Sequence record: MN850615.1
Reading direction: 5' to 3' (one strand)
Origin: Escherichia phage kvi
DNA length: 64,000 bases
The notes beneath the pieces were generated by a model that saw only the letters and a list, made by a program, of their open reading frames with translations, had not been told where the DNA came from and did no database searches. Positions 1,083-53,346 of this stretch are shown in pieces. Position 1 is the stretch's first letter; every line of letters starts with the position of its first letter. Both the position numbers and the translations under genes were made by a program.

Positions 1083-1111
1083 TATTATGCAATGATGGAT
1101 TTGTGAAGTCA
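1083..1111 (-). promoter_or_regulatory. sigma70-type promoter (TTGACT-N17-CATAAT)
   Basis: rc of 1106..1111 TTGACT; rc of 1083..1088 CATAAT. Confidence 0.5.
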
Positions 1112-1120
1112 ACAACTTTT

Positions 1121-1152
1121 TAAAATAAAAAAGCCGACCACACGGATCGGCT
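1121..1152 (-). terminator. rho-independent terminator (hairpin agccga...tcggct followed by U-run on minus strand)
   Basis: GC stem at 1131..1152 preceded on plus by aaaataaaaa, i.e. a T-run downstream on minus. Confidence 0.55.
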
Positions 1153-8493: not shown

Positions 8494-8527
8494 TATTAAA
8501 TCCTCATAAACGAAAAGGGAGACTCCC

Positions 8528-8555
8528 ATTATAGAGAATCTCCCTTGTATGTCAA
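8528..8555 (-). promoter_or_regulatory. sigma70-type promoter (TTGACA-N16-TATAAT) followed by short hairpin and U-run
   Basis: rc of 8550..8555 TTGACA; rc of 8528..8533 TATAAT; gggagactccc at 8517..8527 then T-run. Confidence 0.5.
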
Positions 8556-9116: not shown

Positions 9117-10940
9117 TTATGACGCCATCCATGCCTTCCTCATGTCTGAATCTTCACTATAGAGCAAATCGAATAGCTCTTTATAGTTTTCCGGTAACGT
9201 GATGATCTCCATGACAGGATCGTTGATCACGCGATGATAGTCTGATTCTGTGAGCGATGCTAAACCTTTGATATATCGAATGTTGTAACCTTTGATATTA
9301 TCTCGGTCGGTCTCAAAATCTTCTAGGTCATAATACCATCGAACATCATCACCTTTCTTTGGTTCCGCAATGATAATAGGTGTTTTGATAAACCGGATTC
9401 GTCCATCTTCGAACAATTCAGGCCAACGAGCAAAGAAAGAGATCAGACTAGGTTTAATAGACCCGATCCCGTCAGTATCAGCGTCTGTCATAATCGCAAT
9501 ATTTTTGTATTGCATAACTTCCAATGCATCAACACCAAATTGCAAGCCAGTGATCGCCATGATGTTAAAAATTTCGGCGTTCTTAACGATCTTTGCCTCC
9601 GGTTGTTCCCACGTTGTAAGAGTTTTGCCTCGCAACGGGAAACCTCCATGTAAATCTGGATCACGTACAGAGACCAGATAGTTGATCGCGGAATCACCTT
9701 CCGTCAAAAACAGGGTAGTTTCTGCGTCAGTTCCAATAAGGTTAGCTTTAACGTGTTTTGCTACCTTAGCCCGTTTCGCTGCTTTTGCTACCTTAGTCGC
9801 TGCCGCTTTATCTGCTGCCTCTTTGCGTGCCAGGACTACAGCAATAATAGGCATGATAATGTTTTCTTTCTTCGCAATGACTTTAGCCAGCTTTTTAAAA
9901 TCAAGATCAATATGACGCTTGATATCACCAGTTGGATTAGTCAATCGTTCTTTTGTCTGTGAATCAAAACGAAGGTTAGGCAATTCACGAACAATAAGAA
10001 TACAGGTCAATCCAGACTTAACCGCAGCTTTAGTAACATCAACCTTATGTTCTTTCTTGATTCGTTTTACAATCTCTTCACAAAGATCATCTGTCACGTA
10101 GTCTACGTGTGTTCCCCCGTTTTTGGTAAACAGACCATTAGCAAAGGATACTGATTTAAAACCTTCTCCCTCGACCGCAGGAACTAGGGCAAGTGAAAAG
10201 TTTTTATCTTCAATGACAAACGGATCATCATTGTATAGTTTAGCATAATCCTTGAACTTACTAACAATACGTTTACCATTAAACTTAAACGTGATCTTAG
10301 GAAAGATTACGCTCAATGATTGCAGACGATCATGAACAATATCTAAAACAGAGTTGTCCATCATATAACCTTCGAAGTGGTCGAAGTCTGGGCAAAATGT
10401 AACCTTTGTTCCCTTCAATTTTGATGGTTTCGATGACCATGTGATATTTTCAGCACCGTTTGTACATTGAACGGTCATTTCTGTTTCTCCGTCACAGGTC
10501 ACACCAGTAAACCAATCGCTAAAGAAATTTGACAACGACGACCCCACACCGTTCATCCCTTGCGTTAATCGATTGGTATCATCAAAGTTAGACCCTGCTT
10601 TTGTTCGTGTCCATGCGGCTACAGGTTGCGGAATCTGCGTGCCCTCTGGAGTAGTAACCATATGTTGAGGAATACCGCGACCATTGTCTGTTACCGTAAC
10701 AATATTGTTTTGGATATCGACGCTAATCACATTGGCAAATTCAAAATTAGTGCGAATCGCCTCGTCTACAGAGTTGTCGATGATCTCATCAATGATTTTA
10801 ACCAGTCCTGGAACATATGAAATTTTTGTCCATTTACCGAACAGGAAACGTTGGTGTTCTTCGTAAGTTGTTGATCCTATATACATTCCTGCACGCTTAA
10901 GGACATGTTCACGATCAGATAAAATGCGAAACTCACTCAT
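9117..10940 (-). CDS. 39: DNA topoisomerase II large subunit (GyrB-like ATPase and TOPRIM; T4 gp39 and gp60 equivalents fused)
   Basis: 607 aa; N-terminus ..ILSDREHVLKRAGMYIGS.. is the GyrB signature; single uninterrupted ORF. Confidence 0.9.
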   Translation of the reverse strand: MSEFRILSDREHVLKRAGMYIGSTTYEEHQRFLFGKWTKISYVPGLVKIIDEIIDNSVDEAIRTNFEFANVISVDIQNNIVTVTDNGRGIPQHMVTTPEGTQIPQPVAAWTRTKAGSNFDDTNRLTQGMNGVGSSLSNFFSDWFTGVTCDGETEMTVQCTNGAENITWSSKPSKLKGTKVTFCPDFDHFEGYMMDNSVLDIVHDRLQSLSVIFPKITFKFNGKRIVSKFKDYAKLYNDDPFVIEDKNFSLALVPAVEGEGFKSVSFANGLFTKNGGTHVDYVTDDLCEEIVKRIKKEHKVDVTKAAVKSGLTCILIVRELPNLRFDSQTKERLTNPTGDIKRHIDLDFKKLAKVIAKKENIIMPIIAVVLARKEAADKAAATKVAKAAKRAKVAKHVKANLIGTDAETTLFLTEGDSAINYLVSVRDPDLHGGFPLRGKTLTTWEQPEAKIVKNAEIFNIMAITGLQFGVDALEVMQYKNIAIMTDADTDGIGSIKPSLISFFARWPELFEDGRIRFIKTPIIIAEPKKGDDVRWYYDLEDFETDRDNIKGYNIRYIKGLASLTESDYHRVINDPVMEIITLPENYKELFDLLYSEDSDMRKAWMAS

Positions 10941-13876: not shown

Positions 13877-14190
13877 TATCCTAAAATCCTCACCTTGCGA
13901 ACACAGATAGTATTGAGTTCTCGCCGTACCCGTTCTTTTTCATATTCAGGAATTTTATATTCGATACCATCCCGAACAATTTCAGAAGACCGGATTATGC
14001 CAAATTTTCGTTTAGGTACAACCTTGTATTTCGGTTCACCCGCCAATAGACTCTCACAATAATCTATCTGATCACACATTGACGCTAACGCAGCATCATG
14101 TGTTTCGCAAGTTAGGACGCGACCTTTCGCGTCCACTGAGTATTGAAAGAATCCGTCTTTATCACGATAACATACAGCAAATACATGCAT
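13876..14190 (-). CDS. hypothetical protein (104 aa)
   Basis: track ORF. Confidence 0.5.
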   Translation of the reverse strand: MHVFAVCYRDKDGFFQYSVDAKGRVLTCETHDAALASMCDQIDYCESLLAGEPKYKVVPKRKFGIIRSSEIVRDGIEYKIPEYEKERVRRELNTICVRKVRILG

Positions 14191-14945
14191 TATAAACCTA
14201 CCTTCGCTTTCATCAATTCAATCCACGACGCATCAATCGGAAGCCCGTATTTCACGCGTTCTTTTTGTGCTGGCGTTAAGTTCTCATACTTAGAAAGAGA
14301 TTCAATCAAAACGCTGGTATATTTTAGCACGATTTCGGTATTGTTTGCAATAGCCTTAAGTTTTTCTTCTTTCTTGTTGATTTCGCTAAGGGCTTGCTTG
14401 AGATCTGCAATTTTCTGATAACGTTCTTCCATACGGAAGAGAGTATTTTTAATCGCTCGCTCGGCTGCCTCTGCTTTCTCCGGTTCGTTGTGCTTTTTGT
14501 GGCGCTCGATTGCTAATTTCTTTTCTTCGATTGCCATTTCCTGATTTTTGATGCGATTCTCGTTAAGTTCGATCCACTCGATGTACTTCGCACGTAGGGC
14601 AATTTCATCATCAGAAAGTTTACCGTTAGTTCCTAGTTCCTGGATCTCTTTAAGAGATTCGATAGTGTGATTGCCACGGAAAGAATTGTATTTCAGTTTA
14701 ACCGGAATTACATTGCCATCAACATATCCCAGATTGCAATCAATGCGCTCTAAGGAGAGTCCGTCATCACCTTCACCGAAAGCCTCACCTGAATAGGCAC
14801 AATGAGTCTGGCGGTAAATGTTACGAACAGTGACTAAGCTCATAGAGAAGTCTTTGTTGCGACGTGAAGCACCAGCCATGATAGAGTTCAGCCGGAAAAC
14901 AACCAACGCCAATTCTTCGTTAGATTTAAAAGCAAACAGTTTCAT
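14190..14945 (-). CDS. hypothetical protein with long C-terminal coiled-coil-like region (251 aa)
   Basis: track ORF; K/E-rich heptad-like C-terminal half. Confidence 0.5.
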   Translation of the reverse strand: MKLFAFKSNEELALVVFRLNSIMAGASRRNKDFSMSLVTVRNIYRQTHCAYSGEAFGEGDDGLSLERIDCNLGYVDGNVIPVKLKYNSFRGNHTIESLKEIQELGTNGKLSDDEIALRAKYIEWIELNENRIKNQEMAIEEKKLAIERHKKHNEPEKAEAAERAIKNTLFRMEERYQKIADLKQALSEINKKEEKLKAIANNTEIVLKYTSVLIESLSKYENLTPAQKERVKYGLPIDASWIELMKAKVGL

Positions 14946-15006
14946 AATTGATTCTCCTTAGTTGGCATGTGTGTATTATTGTCTATCTGGTTTGTGCTGT
15001 CAACAC

Positions 15007-15510
15007 TTAAATTAAAGAAAATTTGTAAATCTCTATCAGATCGCCGTTACACGCGTAAACTTCCTCGATCTCATCAAGGATCATGGTCGTCCCTGTCTTG
15101 TATATGCACTCGCGCTCATCTGCCAACATAGCATACAAAGACAGTCGAGTAGTCGGATTGTCATACTCTTTAGACACCACTCGGTCAATAGCATGTTCGT
15201 AATAATTCATGCAAGGCTTGGTAGGTTTTATTGCAATAATCTTTCCTGTTGCATAAACATCGGTCGCAAAGTCCTCTGCTGTTGATTGCAGTGGCGTAAA
15301 GCTCATAGGACGCTCTACAACGAAAGAATCGCCTACAATTAAGGTATCCAGCTTACGACCTTCTCTTTTGCTCACACCGCGATACAAGGCTTCATGATGC
15401 ACTAACCGCTCAGTCTTTTCGATCAATCCATTAAGGATCGACATATCGATATTTTCTTTAGAGTTCATCACTTCATCAATGATGTTAAGTTCTTCTGGTG
15501 TAAATTGCAT
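15007..15510 (-). CDS. putative mono-ADP-ribosyltransferase (ModA/ModB-like)
   Basis: ART-like triad Y-R-G.., ..S-T-A.., ..E-R-E.. with typical spacing; sits between dda and gene 56 where T4 has modA/modB. Confidence 0.5.
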   Translation of the reverse strand: MQFTPEELNIIDEVMNSKENIDMSILNGLIEKTERLVHHEALYRGVSKREGRKLDTLIVGDSFVVERPMSFTPLQSTAEDFATDVYATGKIIAIKPTKPCMNYYEHAIDRVVSKEYDNPTTRLSLYAMLADERECIYKTGTTMILDEIEEVYACNGDLIEIYKFSLI

Positions 15511-15543
15511 AATAAAAAAGCCTCCAATCTTTCGACGGGAGGC
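15511..15543 (-). terminator. rho-independent terminator between the -10 of promoter 15544..15572 and the start codon at 15510
   Basis: stem gcctcc/ggaggc (15520..15543) followed on minus by T6. Confidence 0.5.
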
Positions 15544-15572
15544 ATAATAAAACCATTATAGAGTAGTGTCAA
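15544..15572 (-). promoter_or_regulatory. sigma70-type promoter (TTGACA-N17-TATTAT)
   Basis: rc of 15567..15572 TTGACA; rc of 15544..15549 TATTAT. Confidence 0.5.
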
Positions 15573-15579
15573 CTAATTT

Positions 15580-16104
15580 TTAGTAGCCTCGTTCTTGACG
15601 GGCGAAGTTTTCAGCATTTTTCAGATAGTACAGAATAAAGAGTTCTTGAGCGTCAATACCCAGCGGGATCATCTTTGACAGAATGAAGTGGATAGCGTCC
15701 ACAAATTCAAATTTCACTTCAAGCTGATCTTCCGGTGACAGTTCAGAGAATTTACGCGCTCGCGCTTCCCCGTGGTTCTTTTTCCACATTTTCCAGATTG
15801 CACTTGCATCTTTACCATTGGACATTCCACCCAGCGATGTGTAAAGCTCTCGTGTTTCGTCTGCGATAGCGTCATCCATCCGCTGCATCCAATCCAGCAT
15901 TTCACCGCAAGTCTCTAGCTTAGTTGGATTTGGGACCCAATCAAATTTTTCGGATAGTGCAACCTGCAAACCAGTTTGCATTTCGAGCATCACCTGAAAC
16001 GGATCTTTACCTTCTGCAATCGCGTGATGATATGCGGCGATAGCCGCGTTAATATCTTTTTCGTTAACCAGACCAGCACAAGAATTAAATTCTGACATAT
16101 TCAC
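15580..16104 (-). CDS. 56: dCTP pyrophosphatase-like protein (MazG-type, T4 gp56-like)
   Basis: 174 aa; C-terminal ..LYYLKNAENFARQ.. and overall pattern recall T4 gp56; adjacent to primase. Confidence 0.6.
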   Translation of the reverse strand: MNMSEFNSCAGLVNEKDINAAIAAYHHAIAEGKDPFQVMLEMQTGLQVALSEKFDWVPNPTKLETCGEMLDWMQRMDDAIADETRELYTSLGGMSNGKDASAIWKMWKKNHGEARARKFSELSPEDQLEVKFEFVDAIHFILSKMIPLGIDAQELFILYYLKNAENFARQERGY

Positions 16105-20520: not shown

Positions 20521-20545
20521 AAGGGGCACGTAGCCCCTTTACTAC
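20521..20545 (-). terminator. rho-independent terminator after uvsX
   Basis: hairpin aggggctacgtgcccct followed by T-run on minus strand. Confidence 0.55.
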
Positions 20546-20550
20546 CATTG

Positions 20551-21621
20551 TTATGCTAACATATCTTCGATTTCTTTGTCAACTGCTTCGTCGCTGATCA
20601 CTTGCCCCAGCTTATAATGATCGTTGATTGCTTCGTTAAACTTATCGTTTGTCAGAAGTGGTTTCCAGAACTCAATGCTATTGGTTTCTTTAGCACGGAA
20701 CTTGCGTTCTTCGGTTTCCATCTCTCCGGTCTCGGTATTTAGGATTGAACGAGAATACCAGCCGTTTGACGGTTTCACTACCCAGCCTAACTCTACAGCC
20801 AATTCCAGCAACCCGGAATAAGGATCGATACCACCGCTAAATGTTACGCTAATCGGGAACTTAGATTTTTCTTTAACGGTTCGTGATTTTTCCGCATTCA
20901 GGATAAAATCATAACCAGTAATTTCGGTTCCTTCTTTCTGCTGACGACGACCAATAATGAAAACTTCATTGGCTGAATACATCGCGCCCGTACCGCCGGA
21001 CATAACGGTCTTACTAAACATTTCTTGCGTTTCGTAAGTGTGGTTAATAGCGATGCACGGGATATCATTCATAGTCAGATACGGCGTAACCATACGGAAC
21101 AAGCCTTTAAGTGCTTTAGCTCGCGTCATATCCTGCGCTGATTTCTCATTAATCGCGTCTTCAACTTCTTTTTTGCTTGCTAAGTTACCGATTGAGTCAA
21201 TAAAGATGATCACTTTATCTTCACGGGTAATTTGCTCAAGCTGGTTCATGATTTCAAATTTCAGTTCTTCGATGTTCTTGATTGGAACATGCACCACGCG
21301 ATCAGGATCTACACCCATAGATTCAAGATAAGCGGACGTAATACCAAACTCAGAATCAAAGAACAAGCACGCCGCATCAGGATTCTGTTTCATGTATGCA
21401 CTAACGCAAGTTAATCCCATGTTTGATTTAAAGTGCTTAGACGGACCAGCAAAGAAAATCAGACCAGATTGAAAGCCTTTTTTAAGATCACCTGAAAACG
21501 CAATATTCAGCATCGGGATCTTAGTGCGAGTATTTGTTTTTTCGTTAAAGAAGCTGGATTTAGACAGTACCGCAGTAGTTTTCAGGGTAGAGTTCTTTTT
21601 CAGTTTTTCCAGTACAGACAT
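20551..21621 (-). CDS. uvsX: RecA-like recombinase
   Basis: 356 aa; ..FAGPSKHFKSN.. Walker A and extended match to T4 UvsX as recalled. Confidence 0.9.
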   Translation of the reverse strand: MSVLEKLKKNSTLKTTAVLSKSSFFNEKTNTRTKIPMLNIAFSGDLKKGFQSGLIFFAGPSKHFKSNMGLTCVSAYMKQNPDAACLFFDSEFGITSAYLESMGVDPDRVVHVPIKNIEELKFEIMNQLEQITREDKVIIFIDSIGNLASKKEVEDAINEKSAQDMTRAKALKGLFRMVTPYLTMNDIPCIAINHTYETQEMFSKTVMSGGTGAMYSANEVFIIGRRQQKEGTEITGYDFILNAEKSRTVKEKSKFPISVTFSGGIDPYSGLLELAVELGWVVKPSNGWYSRSILNTETGEMETEERKFRAKETNSIEFWKPLLTNDKFNEAINDHYKLGQVISDEAVDKEIEDMLA

Positions 21622-21632
21622 TATTAATACCT

Positions 21633-21860
21633 CTATTCAGTTAATCCGTAATACTTTAATTGCTTCATTGTTATTCGATCTTTGTAGTGCTCTTGAATTA
21701 ACTTTTTCATCGCATCAACATCGATCGTCACAAATACTTCGTTGCTGTGATTTCCGTGAACTTTCTTGAAATGCTCTATGCCTTCCTCACGTTCACGTTT
21801 AATCTTTTCAATGTCTCTCATCGTATATTTCTCACGTTGGCGGGTATCGTCACCCAACAC
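21633..21860 (-). CDS. hypothetical protein (75 aa)
   Basis: track ORF. Confidence 0.45.
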   Translation of the reverse strand: MLGDDTRQREKYTMRDIEKIKREREEGIEHFKKVHGNHSNEVFVTIDVDAMKKLIQEHYKDRITMKQLKYYGLTE

Positions 21861-21882
21861 CCGCCATTATACACACTTTATC

Positions 21883-23359
21883 TTAAATGTCAAACAGGTC
21901 AGTCAGAGAAGCAACTTTCTCATATTGCAGCTTTGCAGCCGTGGTAATGTTCTCCAGTGGTTTGACGAAAGTCTTATTAAACAACAAAGGCCAGTCTAAC
22001 CACTTTAACACCTCTGATTCAATTTCTGGAGGAATACGAGTACCGGACAACCAACCAAAACAGATTTCTCCAAACGGATTTCGATCTTTCAGCGGTACAA
22101 TCATAACCTTCTCGCCCTCACGAATTGGATCTAGTCCGAATTTTCGAGCATTACGATTATAACACAATACACTCTTAACCGCATACGGACAACCCTTAAT
22201 CGGATACCCGTTTGAATCGCTGTATTTCTGTAGGTTGTTTGCAGATGATACCGCAGCAACCTCAAGATAATCAAGTTTTCTAAATTCTTGCTCAAAAATA
22301 CCGTAGTATTCCTGCAATGACTCTTCACCTTCCTGCAACATACGGCGAATACATTCTTTCAGTGATTTCTGACATGCTTTAGGGGTGGAGCTACGTTGCG
22401 TTTCCAAGCCCATGATTTTTAGCTTAGGTTCAGCAAAGCGCGTTCCTTCCATATCCCAAACATTAAGAGCATAACGCTTTTTGCCAGTCCAGAATCCACC
22501 GATACCCGCAGATTTCAACGGAGGACCAGCAATTGCCTCACGGTCCATAAACATCAAGTGCTCATAGTTGTTCATGTACTCGCATAACTCGCGATATCCC
22601 TTGTCGATAATAGGTTCCATTCGATGTTTACCGAAATTATCAAGGAAGTCAACAAGTTTTTCGGTATCGTCGAAACGGTCTTCCCCGCCAACCTTATCAA
22701 CAACATTGTTAACCAGCACATAAACGGAGTCAGTATCACAATAACGAACATATGCAAAATCGGTTGTTCCGCAAAGCTCGTTTAAGTATTCGTTAATCTT
22801 ACGCTCAATCCACTGAATTGCAAGCTGACCAAACAAGGTGATCGCACTAGCGTTACGGAGATCATAAAAACGGAATTTAGGATTCCCCAACGCACCATAA
22901 AGGGAGTTGATCAAAACTTTTCGAGAAAGCTGGTTTGTATTGCACAAGATCGACTCGTCTTTACATTCTTCCAGCAATTTCTCTAAGGCATCTTTACTTA
23001 ATTCAGAAAGCATCGATTTAAACGCTTCATCAAAGTCGTGACGTACTTCAACGCTATAGCTAATGGTTCCCCCATAAACATGATTTTCATCGTGTAGAAT
23101 CGCTTTACAGAGTTCAGCATTGCGATCACATGCCAACATCATGTTTTTGTACTGCTTACGCTGATCGAATACCTTTTTAATCTCAATCGGTACGATACCG
23201 TGAATATCTTTTCTATACATCCATCCGTTAGGAGAGCAAGAATACTCATCACTCGGACGTGGTGCAGTTTTATTGATATACTCGTGCATCGGTGCAGCAT
23301 CAAAAGATCCGGCGATTGTTTCCGGCGAAATGTTAACCTGACGGATGATTGATGGATAC
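21883..23359 (-). CDS. 43: DNA polymerase (family B), exon 2
   Basis: track ORF 21883..23289 extends upstream in frame to 23359 (..YPSIIRQVNISPETI..), continuing exon 1; exons together give about 892 aa. Confidence 0.85.
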
Positions 23360-27674: not shown

Positions 27675-27739
27675 ATAATCACCTCTCACAAATTACATCA
27701 TTAAAACGGGGAGTATTTATACTCCCCACAAACATTATA

Positions 27740-28429
27740 TTAGTCGGTGTAGCTGGAGTCAAGGTCACACGCGATCATATAAGATACGGTTTCACTTGCC
27801 AGCCATACAGCCTTACGGCGAGTGAAGCTCAGTTTGTAATCGCCGAAGTCAGTAGCAACCAGTTTCATGTTATCTTTACGAATAAAGAAATGGAAGTCTG
27901 CGGTTCCGGTATATTCGCCCATATCAAGACAAAACATCTCATTAGGATTATTTTTGTCAATCTCTTCCCAACCTTTGATCATCAGACGACCATCAATCGG
28001 AAGAAATTCAAGGCGATCCACTTTAAGCTGATTGCTCATTTTCATAAGCTGTTTCAGATCGTCGTTGCTCAGTTCGTAATCTACATCGCTTGCAGGTGGA
28101 GTAACTCGGCCTTTCGGTGATACGATAGCAGCAGCACTAGCACCAGGGTAATTAATTTTCAGACGATCATTAGACACACGAATGTTTCCGGTGCGGTCAT
28201 CAACCGTAATATCTGCTTCATCGCCTACCAGATTCAGAATACCCAGGAAAGAGTTAAGATCATAGATCCCGATTTCGTGTTCCAGTTCTTGATTCAGAGT
28301 CGCTTCACCATATACAACGTTTGTCATGTTTTTGGTGATTAGGACGTTTCCTTTTTTCAGGATGATACCTGGGTTAATAGCGGAAAAGTTTTTCATGGTA
28401 GCAATGGTTTCTTTAGTCAGTTTCATCAA
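27740..28429 (-). CDS. 45: sliding clamp
   Basis: 229 aa; N-terminus ..TIATMKNFSAINPGIILK.. recalls T4 gp45. Confidence 0.9.
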   Translation of the reverse strand: MMKLTKETIATMKNFSAINPGIILKKGNVLITKNMTNVVYGEATLNQELEHEIGIYDLNSFLGILNLVGDEADITVDDRTGNIRVSNDRLKINYPGASAAAIVSPKGRVTPPASDVDYELSNDDLKQLMKMSNQLKVDRLEFLPIDGRLMIKGWEEIDKNNPNEMFCLDMGEYTGTADFHFFIRKDNMKLVATDFGDYKLSFTRRKAVWLASETVSYMIACDLDSSYTD

Positions 28430-41124: not shown

Positions 41125-41152
41125 CATTATACATTAGCTAATCATGTTGTCA
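41125..41152 (-). promoter_or_regulatory. sigma70-type promoter (TTGACA-N16-TATAAT)
   Basis: rc of 41147..41152 TTGACA; rc of 41125..41130 TATAAT. Confidence 0.55.
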
Positions 41153-41161
41153 ACACCCCAA

Positions 41162-41190
41162 AACGAAAAAGCCGACCCTTTCGGATCGGC
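41162..41190 (-). terminator. rho-independent terminator after nrdD
   Basis: hairpin agccga..tcggct followed on minus by TTTTTCGTTTT. Confidence 0.6.
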
Positions 41191-43652: not shown

Positions 43653-44831
43653 TCAAACACTAACTTTTTTCTTTACTGCTTTCACCTTCTGGCGAATTGC
43701 TCGAATCTCTTCGATCTCTTTTTCAGTCTCTTTAACAATTTCTTTGCGATTCTGAATATCTGTATCGAGATTATCATCAAGTTTAGGCAGCATGTCAATC
43801 AAGAACTTTTTAAGGTCTTTCAGGTTTCGAATAACAGCACCTTCGCCCATTACCGCAACACCCACACCATCCGGCAGATCACCAAACAGCTTAACCAGTT
43901 CAGACAGATGATCATGATCTTCTAGTGCTTCTTCCGGTTCAGATGGCAGTTCAACAAAGTTATAACGTTCATCATTGCTGATCAAGTGATACCAGCAAAG
44001 CCCGAAAGATTTCGGTGTATATTCTACACCATCAATTTCAACCGCGTCAACACTTCCATAATCATCTACTTTAGTTACCTTAAATCCTTGTCCCAGCTTT
44101 TGAACAATTTCAACAACATGACTTGATACAGTTTCAGCGGTAAACCAATATGGCAAATTATGCTGATTTGGCTTGTAGCGTTCACCTACTTTAAATCTCT
44201 GACCATCCGCTTGCATAGCATGAAATTGTTGTTTCGTGATTTCCGCGAAGTATTCAAATTCGCTACCGTCAAACAAGCAATTCCATTGATCACAAAAACG
44301 ATCTGCCTTAACGGTTTCACCTTTCGCGGTGATCATGGTAGCTGATCCGTGCAATTCTTCTTCAACTAAAAAGCCATATTCGACAAAATCAACAAGTTTC
44401 ATGGCTTCTTTGTGCTCTGGGTCATGCTCTCCCCAGAATCGCTTAAATTCTTGCAAACCTTCTGGGGTAAACGAATAACATTTACCTTTTTCAAAGTAAG
44501 TCGGCATTGCATCCTCTTTCTTGTTCATCGCTTCGTATGCCTCTTTTGAGATACGTTTAAAGTATTTGCGCTCATTGTGCATAATCATAGTAGACCAATA
44601 ATAAACGATATCCTCAGCGGAATAAACTACATCTCCAGCTTCAATAGTAATAACATGACCGTGGTCATCTTTTTCTAATACTTTAAAGCCCTTTTCTACG
44701 ATTTCAGCAACCCGAATATGACCACGGCGCGAAGCATCGGTCAGAATAATTGAATAGCGAGAAAAGTCTAGAAACTCATCTTTACCGCCTTCACGGAATG
44801 CATAGTAATGACCTTCAAAGAATTTAGCCAT
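43653..44831 (-). CDS. large member (392 aa) of the paralogous ..EIDG.. family
   Basis: contains ..VDAVEIDGVEY.., ..ERYNFVEL.., ..NERKYFKRI.. and helical tail. Confidence 0.5.
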   Translation of the reverse strand: MAKFFEGHYYAFREGGKDEFLDFSRYSIILTDASRRGHIRVAEIVEKGFKVLEKDDHGHVITIEAGDVVYSAEDIVYYWSTMIMHNERKYFKRISKEAYEAMNKKEDAMPTYFEKGKCYSFTPEGLQEFKRFWGEHDPEHKEAMKLVDFVEYGFLVEEELHGSATMITAKGETVKADRFCDQWNCLFDGSEFEYFAEITKQQFHAMQADGQRFKVGERYKPNQHNLPYWFTAETVSSHVVEIVQKLGQGFKVTKVDDYGSVDAVEIDGVEYTPKSFGLCWYHLISNDERYNFVELPSEPEEALEDHDHLSELVKLFGDLPDGVGVAVMGEGAVIRNLKDLKKFLIDMLPKLDDNLDTDIQNRKEIVKETEKEIEEIRAIRQKVKAVKKKVSV

Positions 44832-53281: not shown

Positions 53282-53310
53282 ATTATGCTATACCCTATTC
53301 CGGTTGTCAA
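53282..53310 (-). promoter_or_regulatory. sigma70-type promoter (TTGACA-N17-CATAAT)
   Basis: rc of 53305..53310 TTGACA; rc of 53282..53287 CATAAT. Confidence 0.5.
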
Positions 53311-53315
53311 CACCT

Positions 53316-53346
53316 AAAAACGAAAAAGCCACCCTTTCGGATGGCT
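53316..53346 (-). terminator. rho-independent terminator immediately upstream of the promoter
   Basis: hairpin agcca..tggct with U-run TTTTTCGTTTTT on minus strand. Confidence 0.55.

Follow-up and report, generated by a model that had tools for sequence, protein, structure and literature searches.

A probable PeSL-type promoter and stem-loop cassette upstream of modB in an RB49-like coliphage, with the Shine-Dalgarno sequence in the 3' arm of a predicted terminator hairpin

The phages RB49 and phi1 carry about 50 promoter-early stem-loops (PeSLs) per genome, i.e. composite elements in which a consensus sigma70 promoter is preceded by an AT-rich region and accompanied by a stable stem-loop, for which five positions have been described (Arbiol et al. 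2010, PMC2839356). In one subclass the stem-loop is found downstream of the -10 element and before the start, and the stem-loop has been read as a terminator or attenuator of transcription arriving from upstream (PMC2839356). This reading draws on lacZ assays of a single PeSL stem-loop and a single promoter, the published assays being confined to PeSL193/192, PeSL206/205 and PeSL211/210, all of which are sites other than the one described here (PMC2839356). The stems are "frequently" of the polyG...polyC kind, which is thus a typical and not an obligatory feature, and PeSLs favour hyperplastic regions, positions upstream of ORFans and loci of unusual plasticity, with a few being located in core modules (PMC2839356). 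A later study extended the concept to other T4-like phages (Comeau et al. 2014, PMC4122927).

A second group of systems is known from phage T4 itself, where hairpins in the long transcripts of genes e, soc, 49 and I-TevI sequester the Shine-Dalgarno (SD) sequence and/or the AUG, and where late promoters are positioned such that transcription begins within the hairpin, the resulting RNAs being translated since they are devoid of the 5' arm (Uzan & Miller 2010, PMC3014915).

Here we describe how the junction of gene 56 and modB in Escherichia phage kvi compares with these systems. The window, i.e. the whole stretch of 64,000 nucleotides of sequence record MN850615.1 that was analysed, is, as judged from its sequence, that of an RB49-like "pseudo-T-even" T4-type coliphage of the genus Krischvirus. 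Over 1.2 kb around the site, the window shows 100% identity to Escherichia phage FL37 and about 99% identity to RB49, GEC-3S, ECD7 and other Krischvirus members. The neighbouring genes are all encoded on the minus strand, in the order DNA primase (gene 61), gene 56, modB, srd and dda, and the PHROGs matches back the names modB and srd. The gap between gene 56 and modB comprises 69 nt and holds the entire cassette of promoter and hairpin (Table 1). Downstream of modB, srd has its own promoter at 15003, and no hairpin comparable to the focal one was found between modB and srd. The Srd open reading frame (14190..14945, minus strand) matches the PHROG "Srd anti-sigma factor" with E = 6e-74, and its residues ~20-170 also match HNH/endonuclease PHROGs with E ~1e-12.

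We propose, with a probability of roughly 70%, that the junction forms a PeSL-type composite regulatory cassette of early promoter and stem-loop, which would terminate upstream RNA, allow the RNA of its own promoter to escape termination and gate access to the SD sequence. A preliminary description of the site had placed the -35 and -10 elements, a hairpin with a U-run and the ATG at 15510 in this order on the minus strand, and all of these coordinates are correct. The mechanism that it derived from this order probably works as proposed, as far as this can be read from the DNA.

Table 1. Features of the gene 56-modB junction and related sites in the window. Positions are those of the window.
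Feature	Position	Strand	Basis or remark
Gene 56 (dCTPase/dUTPase family)	15580..16104	minus	ORF; dCTPase in relatives' annotation; Pfam dUTPase_2
Gene 56 stop codon TAA	15582..15580	minus	sequence
AT-rich AAATTAG adjoining the -35 upstream, after TAA	15573..15579	minus	as in published PeSLs
-35 element TTGACA	15567..15572	minus	sequence; GEC-3S minus_35_signal; invariant in 11 relatives
TATAAT within the spacer	15555..15560	minus	sequence
-10 element TATTAT, 17-nt spacer from the -35	15544..15549	minus	sequence; GEC-3S annotation; invariant in 11 relatives
Hairpin 5' arm GCCTCC, promoter positions -6 to -1 (discriminator)	15538..15543	minus	sequence, folding
Predicted transcription start C15537/G15536	15536..15537	minus	promoter geometry, 7-8 nt after the -10
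Hairpin interior: C.U mismatch, 3-bp inner stem GUC/GAU, GAAA loop	15526..15537	minus	folding
Hairpin 3' arm GGAGGC	15520..15525	minus	sequence, folding
Shine-Dalgarno GGAGG, inside the 3' arm, 10 nt before ATG	15525..15521	minus	sequence
U-run T6 (15519..15514) + ATT: terminator tail, also SD-ATG spacer	15511..15519	minus	sequence
modB (ADP-ribosyltransferase, 167 aa)	15007..15510	minus	ORF; relatives' annotation; PHROG 832, E = 1e-20
Comparator, terminator hairpin + T-run, then promoter	1083..1152	minus	conventional order
Comparator PeSL, TTGACA-16-TATAAT, -10 in hairpin loop (-18 to -21 kcal/mol), then TTTTCGTT	8517..8555	minus	
Comparator, terminator hairpin + T-run, then 12/12 promoter	41125..41190	minus	conventional order
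Comparator, terminator hairpin + T-run, then promoter	53282..53346	minus	conventional order
Other cassettes (among others)	-35 at 64000, 63307, 57950, 51776, 49701, 49026, 45801, 44891		
Further cassettes (among others)	-35 at 43656, 40001, 32553, 25736, 8555, 8186, 330		

The 5' arm of the hairpin is flush against the -10 element, i.e. the hairpin begins at the first base after TATTAT. GCCUCC..GGAGGC folds at -13.8 kcal/mol into an outer stem of 6 bp, a mismatch, an inner stem of 3 bp and the GAAA loop (the interior reads C-GTC-GAAA-GAT-T as DNA), and with its GC-rich stem and six U residues flush to the stem the structure has the features of an intrinsic terminator. The claim that transcripts arriving from upstream would carry a full terminator hairpin thus agrees with the folding energy, with the U6 tail and with a TransTerm score of 100 for the same element in RB49. 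Likewise, the 3' arm indeed supplies the SD sequence, GGAGG being part of the GGAGGC arm, upstream of the modB ATG at 15510 on the minus strand. A standard terminator scan with a loop limit of 8 missed the hairpin for that reason only, and a relaxed scan picks it up among a total of 13 terminator-like hairpins on the minus strand. A single match to the pattern GCCTCC-N3-16-GGAGGC is present in the window, as compared to 0.01 expected from shuffles. In IMG/VR the hairpin sequence was found at this locus only, and a strict pattern of the architecture was found nowhere but at this locus in 2.9 million viral contigs (IMG/VR); a mobile repeat was rejected on the grounds of this restriction. A terminator acting on the plus strand was rejected as well, as on that strand the stem is not followed by a T-run, credible genes are absent nearby and no promoter reaches 11 of 12 matches. 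Rfam returned matches below the gathering score only (L10_leader, 25.8 bits vs 44; PyrR, 22.9 bits vs 54), which are chance hits to terminator-like leaders.

The promoter TTGACA-17-TATTAT matches the consensus at 11 of 12 positions, and TAA-AAATTAG, i.e. the stop codon of gene 56 followed by the kind of AT-rich stretch that belongs to the PeSL definition, lies directly before TTGACA. The late-promoter motif TATAAATA is absent from the focal site, the promoter being of the sigma70 early type. From the geometry of the promoter we infer that transcription starts at the first or second base past the 5' arm. This position fits the RB49 promoter feature Pe:9496 (9446..9496, minus strand), the 3' end of which corresponds to position 15536 of the window (window = RB49 + 6090). 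In RB49 the early promoter consensus agrees with mapped 5' ends, and early promoters favour C at -3 to -1 (Nolan et al. 2006). According to the preliminary description, transcripts initiated at this promoter start inside the hairpin. This view stands in so far as the predicted start lies past the 5' arm, so that the stem cannot form, but the start would be located at the boundary of arm and loop and not deep inside the structure.

The cassette may thus be pictured as follows. Gene 56 is the upstream gene and its transcripts would run into the hairpin. Between ~17700 and the site no promoter scoring at least 10/12 was found within the window, so the hairpin would end the unit of primase (gene 61) and gene 56. 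RNA coming from this unit would contain the whole hairpin and terminate in the U-run. Host sigma70 RNA polymerase, in turn, would initiate modB RNA at TTGACA-17-TATTAT, and as the predicted start is located 3' of the 5' arm these transcripts would be unable to form the stem, i.e. local RNA from ~15537/15536 would escape termination and expose its ribosome site. Any upstream RNA that reads through would be poorly translatable because the 3' arm is the SD sequence, and modB synthesis would thus be tied to its own early promoter.

The focal promoter is one of many in the window, and the sigma70-like promoters show an extreme strand asymmetry: at a threshold of 11 of 12 matches, the minus strand has 34 sites and the plus strand none, whereas dinucleotide shuffles yield 1.0 +/- 0.8. 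Nine sites in the whole window are perfect (12/12). A hairpin of -12 kcal/mol or lower is found near 23 of the 34 gene-proximal minus-strand promoters, as compared to 21% of 250 random windows (binomial P = 8e-9). Where a promoter has a hairpin of -10 kcal/mol or lower, this hairpin is located upstream of the predicted start or spans it in 22 of 25 cases, so that the own RNA of each of these promoters would escape the hairpin. Only at three weaker promoter-like sites (-35 at 27762, 20582 and 5227) is the entire hairpin located past the predicted start. The focal site is the only one of the 25 gene-proximal promoters with a hairpin to have the SD sequence in the stem, since only there the stem ends within 9 nt of the ATG. 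Most promoter-associated hairpins in the window have no U-run, and the terminator role published for the class would therefore not be canonical intrinsic termination in these cases. With respect to its overall make-up, the cassette is ordinary for this genome (Table 1).

Four other places in the window had been put forward as similar juxtapositions of promoter and terminator. All four were found where the preliminary description had located them, but three of them have the conventional arrangement, in which the terminator precedes the promoter, and at 8517..8555 the -10 element lies in the hairpin loop. A canonical terminator between the -10 element and the ATG is thus present at the focal site only, if this site and the four comparators are considered.

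Several other arrangements were seen in the window. At 27708..27762 (minus strand) an early promoter, TTGACT-17-TATAAT, is followed 6 nt on by the hairpin GGGGAGTATAAATACTCCCC, the loop of which consists of the T4 late-promoter motif TATAAATA. The arrangement resembles a tandem of an early and a late promoter with the latter in the hairpin loop, and the early RNA would carry the hairpin at its 5' end. At 21831..21893 (minus strand) a second 5' arm fills the discriminator of a promoter, in this case of a 12/12 promoter with TATAAT-G-GCGGGTG...CACCCGCC (-21 kcal/mol); this hairpin has no U-run and the SD sequence lies outside the stem. At 20523..20582 (minus strand) a canonical terminator (GGGGCTACGTGCCCC + T5) precedes an ATG by 16 nt. 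The only promoter-like site upstream of it is weak and for the most part embedded in the preceding ORF, and the gene downstream of this terminator may rely on read-through or on promoters of another class.

Relatives of the site were taken from GenBank phages, IMG/VR and metagenomes. At the site, the 58 matching GenBank records all share an identity of at least 95%. Alignment of 11 relatives shows no variation in the -35 and -10 elements, in the arms, inner stem and loop of the hairpin, in the SD sequence or in the ATG. Changes are limited to the spacer of the promoter, the base at the mismatch (U to C) and the length of the U-run (5-7). The greatest divergence is that of L004, a viral contig from a metagenome, whose ModB protein is 75% identical and which retains every paired base. 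In this contig the intergenic region is 93% identical to the window, as compared to 71% for modB and 75% for gene 56 at the DNA level. A patch of about 200 nt (~680..860 of L004, 15450..15625 of the window) is 92-98% identical with flanks at 53-85%; it reaches from the end of gene 56 across the cassette and ~60 nt into modB, including synonymous sites. The next intergenic region, i.e. that with the promoter between modB and srd, is similarly conserved in this contig. The patch suggests recombination or gene conversion that may have been centred on the cassette, and the conservation fits recent recombination as well as selection. No compensatory changes were found among the relatives aligned, the stem giving no covariation support since it never varies in the available relatives.

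Although both genes are conserved, their junction is plastic, as JSE and G37-3 carry an insertion of an HNH homing-endonuclease gene between gene 56 and modB (JSE, 524..1500 of L005; G37-3, 215..1200 of L013). The inserted gene is located on the opposite strand and overlaps the 3' end of gene 56, the cassette of promoter and hairpin is intact, and the homology to the window restarts 0-4 nt upstream of the -35 element. More distant ModB homologues are only ~30% identical. Upstream of modB in RB69 we found a weak CCUCC/GGAGG complementarity across a 31-nt loop: a CCCTCC in the spacer of the early promoter is complementary to the SD sequence GGAGG 31 nt downstream (700..770 of L015, minus strand), and this pairing may represent a weak analogue of SD masking on upstream transcripts.

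Folding of the two kinds of transcript indicates how far the hairpin would affect the ribosome site. In long transcripts (folds of starts from 15560 to 15800) the unpaired probability of the SD sequence is 0.00, and opening the footprint of the ribosome-binding site (RBS; 15527..15498) is calculated to cost 14.3 kcal/mol in the long transcript vs 5.2 kcal/mol in the own-promoter transcript, i.e. the difference amounts to ~9 kcal/mol. In equilibrium folds of the own-promoter transcript the unpaired probability of the SD sequence is 0.11-0.6, depending on the length folded, and the residual ~5 kcal/mol corresponds to weak pairing with modB codons ~19-21. Due to this residual pairing the translational contrast would be one of degree, though large. 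Transcripts starting anywhere from 15540 to 15535 cannot form the stem, and the accessibility of the SD sequence is similar across these starts. We consider it possible, though at slightly less than even odds, that the hairpin serves a dual purpose as terminator and SD mask, which would make the potentially toxic ModB strictly dependent on its own immediate-early sigma70 promoter. Such a dual purpose would be the early-promoter counterpart of the late-promoter/hairpin switch of T4 and would be a point that the PeSL literature does not discuss.

Much of this is on record. For the same locus in RB49 the supplements of Nolan et al. 2006 list the early promoter Pe:9496 (9446..9496) and a TransTerm terminator at 9430..9453 with a score of 100 and the label "modB<--56", and the latter corresponds exactly to 15520..15543 of the window. 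In GenBank, a promoter is annotated at the site in the GEC-3S record, and the Makalu_002 and Makalu_003 records have an annotated terminator with the RBS inside the terminator feature; "terminator" is also listed under the match for Makalu_001 and TB34. The feature is thus already known both as a class, i.e. as a PeSL, and at this locus as a predicted promoter plus terminator. The word "translation" does not occur in the text of Arbiol et al. 2010 (PMC2839356), and a term search of Comeau et al. 2014 (PMC4122927) found no discussion of the SD sequence or of translation. Within the two PeSL papers as searched, the masking of the RBS by the 3' arm is the sole point that is absent. A literature search for a transcriptome of RB49 or Krischvirus (RNA-seq, Term-seq) found none.

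The arrangement might also be a by-product of genome compaction, an ordinary terminator of the 61-56 unit and the modB promoter having been squeezed into 69 nt, with no selected translational gating and with the SD sequence in the stem merely because GGAGG is a handy GC-rich arm; termination and initiation would be unchanged. T4-type genomes are tightly packed, other canonical terminators beside consensus-like promoters in the window simply precede the promoter, the SD sequence in the stem is unique among the 25 hairpin promoters, and the strict architecture pattern recurs nowhere else in the 2.9 million viral contigs; such uniqueness speaks against a general selected device. However, an order of promoter and then terminator needs the 5' arm exactly at -6 to -1, where it is found, the ~9 kcal/mol gap in the opening cost of the RBS is large, and the same logic is established in T4 genes e, soc, 49 and I-TevI. 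We therefore regard mere compaction as unlikely, and the placement of the arm together with the energy gap argues for functional consequences either way. A start upstream of the hairpin, e.g. from the perfect TATAAT in the promoter spacer, would turn the element into a leader attenuator that limits modB's own transcription, and the three weaker sites of the window (27762, 20582 and 5227) indeed have their hairpins wholly past the predicted start. This TATAAT was nevertheless rejected as the real -10 element, as it is only 6 nt from TTGACA and is lost in JSE, whereas TATTAT is invariant and is the element used in published promoter calls; the hexamer 17 nt upstream of it, CTAAAA, matches at 3 of 6 positions and is no usable -35. 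A leader attenuator is accordingly the least credible of the explanations considered and appears very improbable.

The cassette could, finally, act mainly at the DNA level, i.e. as a recombination linker for modular shuffling or mini-circle formation, with effects on RNA being secondary. Such a role has been proposed for PeSLs (Arbiol et al. 2010, PMC2839356; Comeau et al. 2014, PMC4122927), and both the insertion junction in JSE and G37-3, just upstream of the -35 element, and the patch of identity across the cassette in the metagenomic contig would be in line with it. The hairpin, however, is unique in the window and in IMG/VR, so that only the promoter hexamers could pair with other cassettes, the stem is not of the Gn/Cn type, and the flush U6 and the GAAA loop are features of RNA terminators that a DNA signal would not need. 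A main role as linker thus seems quite improbable, if less so than the attenuator, and we favour the composite cassette that acts on upstream RNA, on its own RNA and on the SD sequence.

For the annotation of RB49-like genomes this means that a promoter directly before a terminator should be read as the boundary of a transcription unit that insulates the downstream gene and not as a contradiction. With the 3' arm of the terminator serving as RBS, modB would be insulated at the transcriptional as well as at the translational level. Such a compact design would have some value for synthetic biology and may help to explain how phages keep their early toxins in check. The arrangement extends known principles and opens no new question.

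Taken together, the site resembles the PeSLs most closely. It comes from the same genus, has a sigma70 promoter close to the consensus that follows an AT-rich stretch, and carries a stable stem-loop between stop codon and SD/ATG, the stem-loop being positioned after the -10 element and SD and ATG forming the 3' end of the cassette. It differs in that the stem is GCCUCC/GGAGGC instead of Gn/Cn, i.e. the polyG...polyC feature is lacking, in that it has a canonical U6 tail whereas most PeSL hairpins in the window do not, and in that it is located in the conserved replication module whereas PeSLs typically reside in hyperplastic regions. Moreover, the 3' arm is the SD sequence, a point discussed by neither PeSL paper.

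With the e-type switch of T4 the site shares the predicted pairing of the SD sequence in long transcripts; from the promoter geometry its own RNA would begin past the 5' arm, with some residual pairing to the coding sequence. In T4, however, the internal promoter is a late one (gp55) that serves temporal delay, whereas the focal promoter is an early sigma70 promoter, and the T4 hairpins are not described as terminators, whereas the focal hairpin is also a predicted intrinsic terminator. The site would act in the manner of the T4 switches without belonging to their group.

A dependence of SD sequestration on the 5' end of the RNA is also found in E. coli pyrC and pyrD, where one promoter shifts its start with the CTP/GTP ratio and the SD-sequestering hairpin forms only in transcripts that begin early enough to contain its 5' arm, a sequence directly adjoining the -10 element in a C-rich start region. 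Start-site switching of the pyrC kind was rejected for the present site, as starts from 15540 to 15535 are all similar in SD accessibility. In pyrC/pyrD the start shifts at one promoter, whereas the contrast at the focal site would be between RNAs initiated upstream and RNAs initiated locally. Like a terminator-promoter tandem, finally, the cassette has a GC-rich hairpin with a U-run to end one unit and a sigma70 promoter to start the next, but the order is inverted, i.e. the terminator follows the promoter hexamers and extends over positions -6 to about +27.
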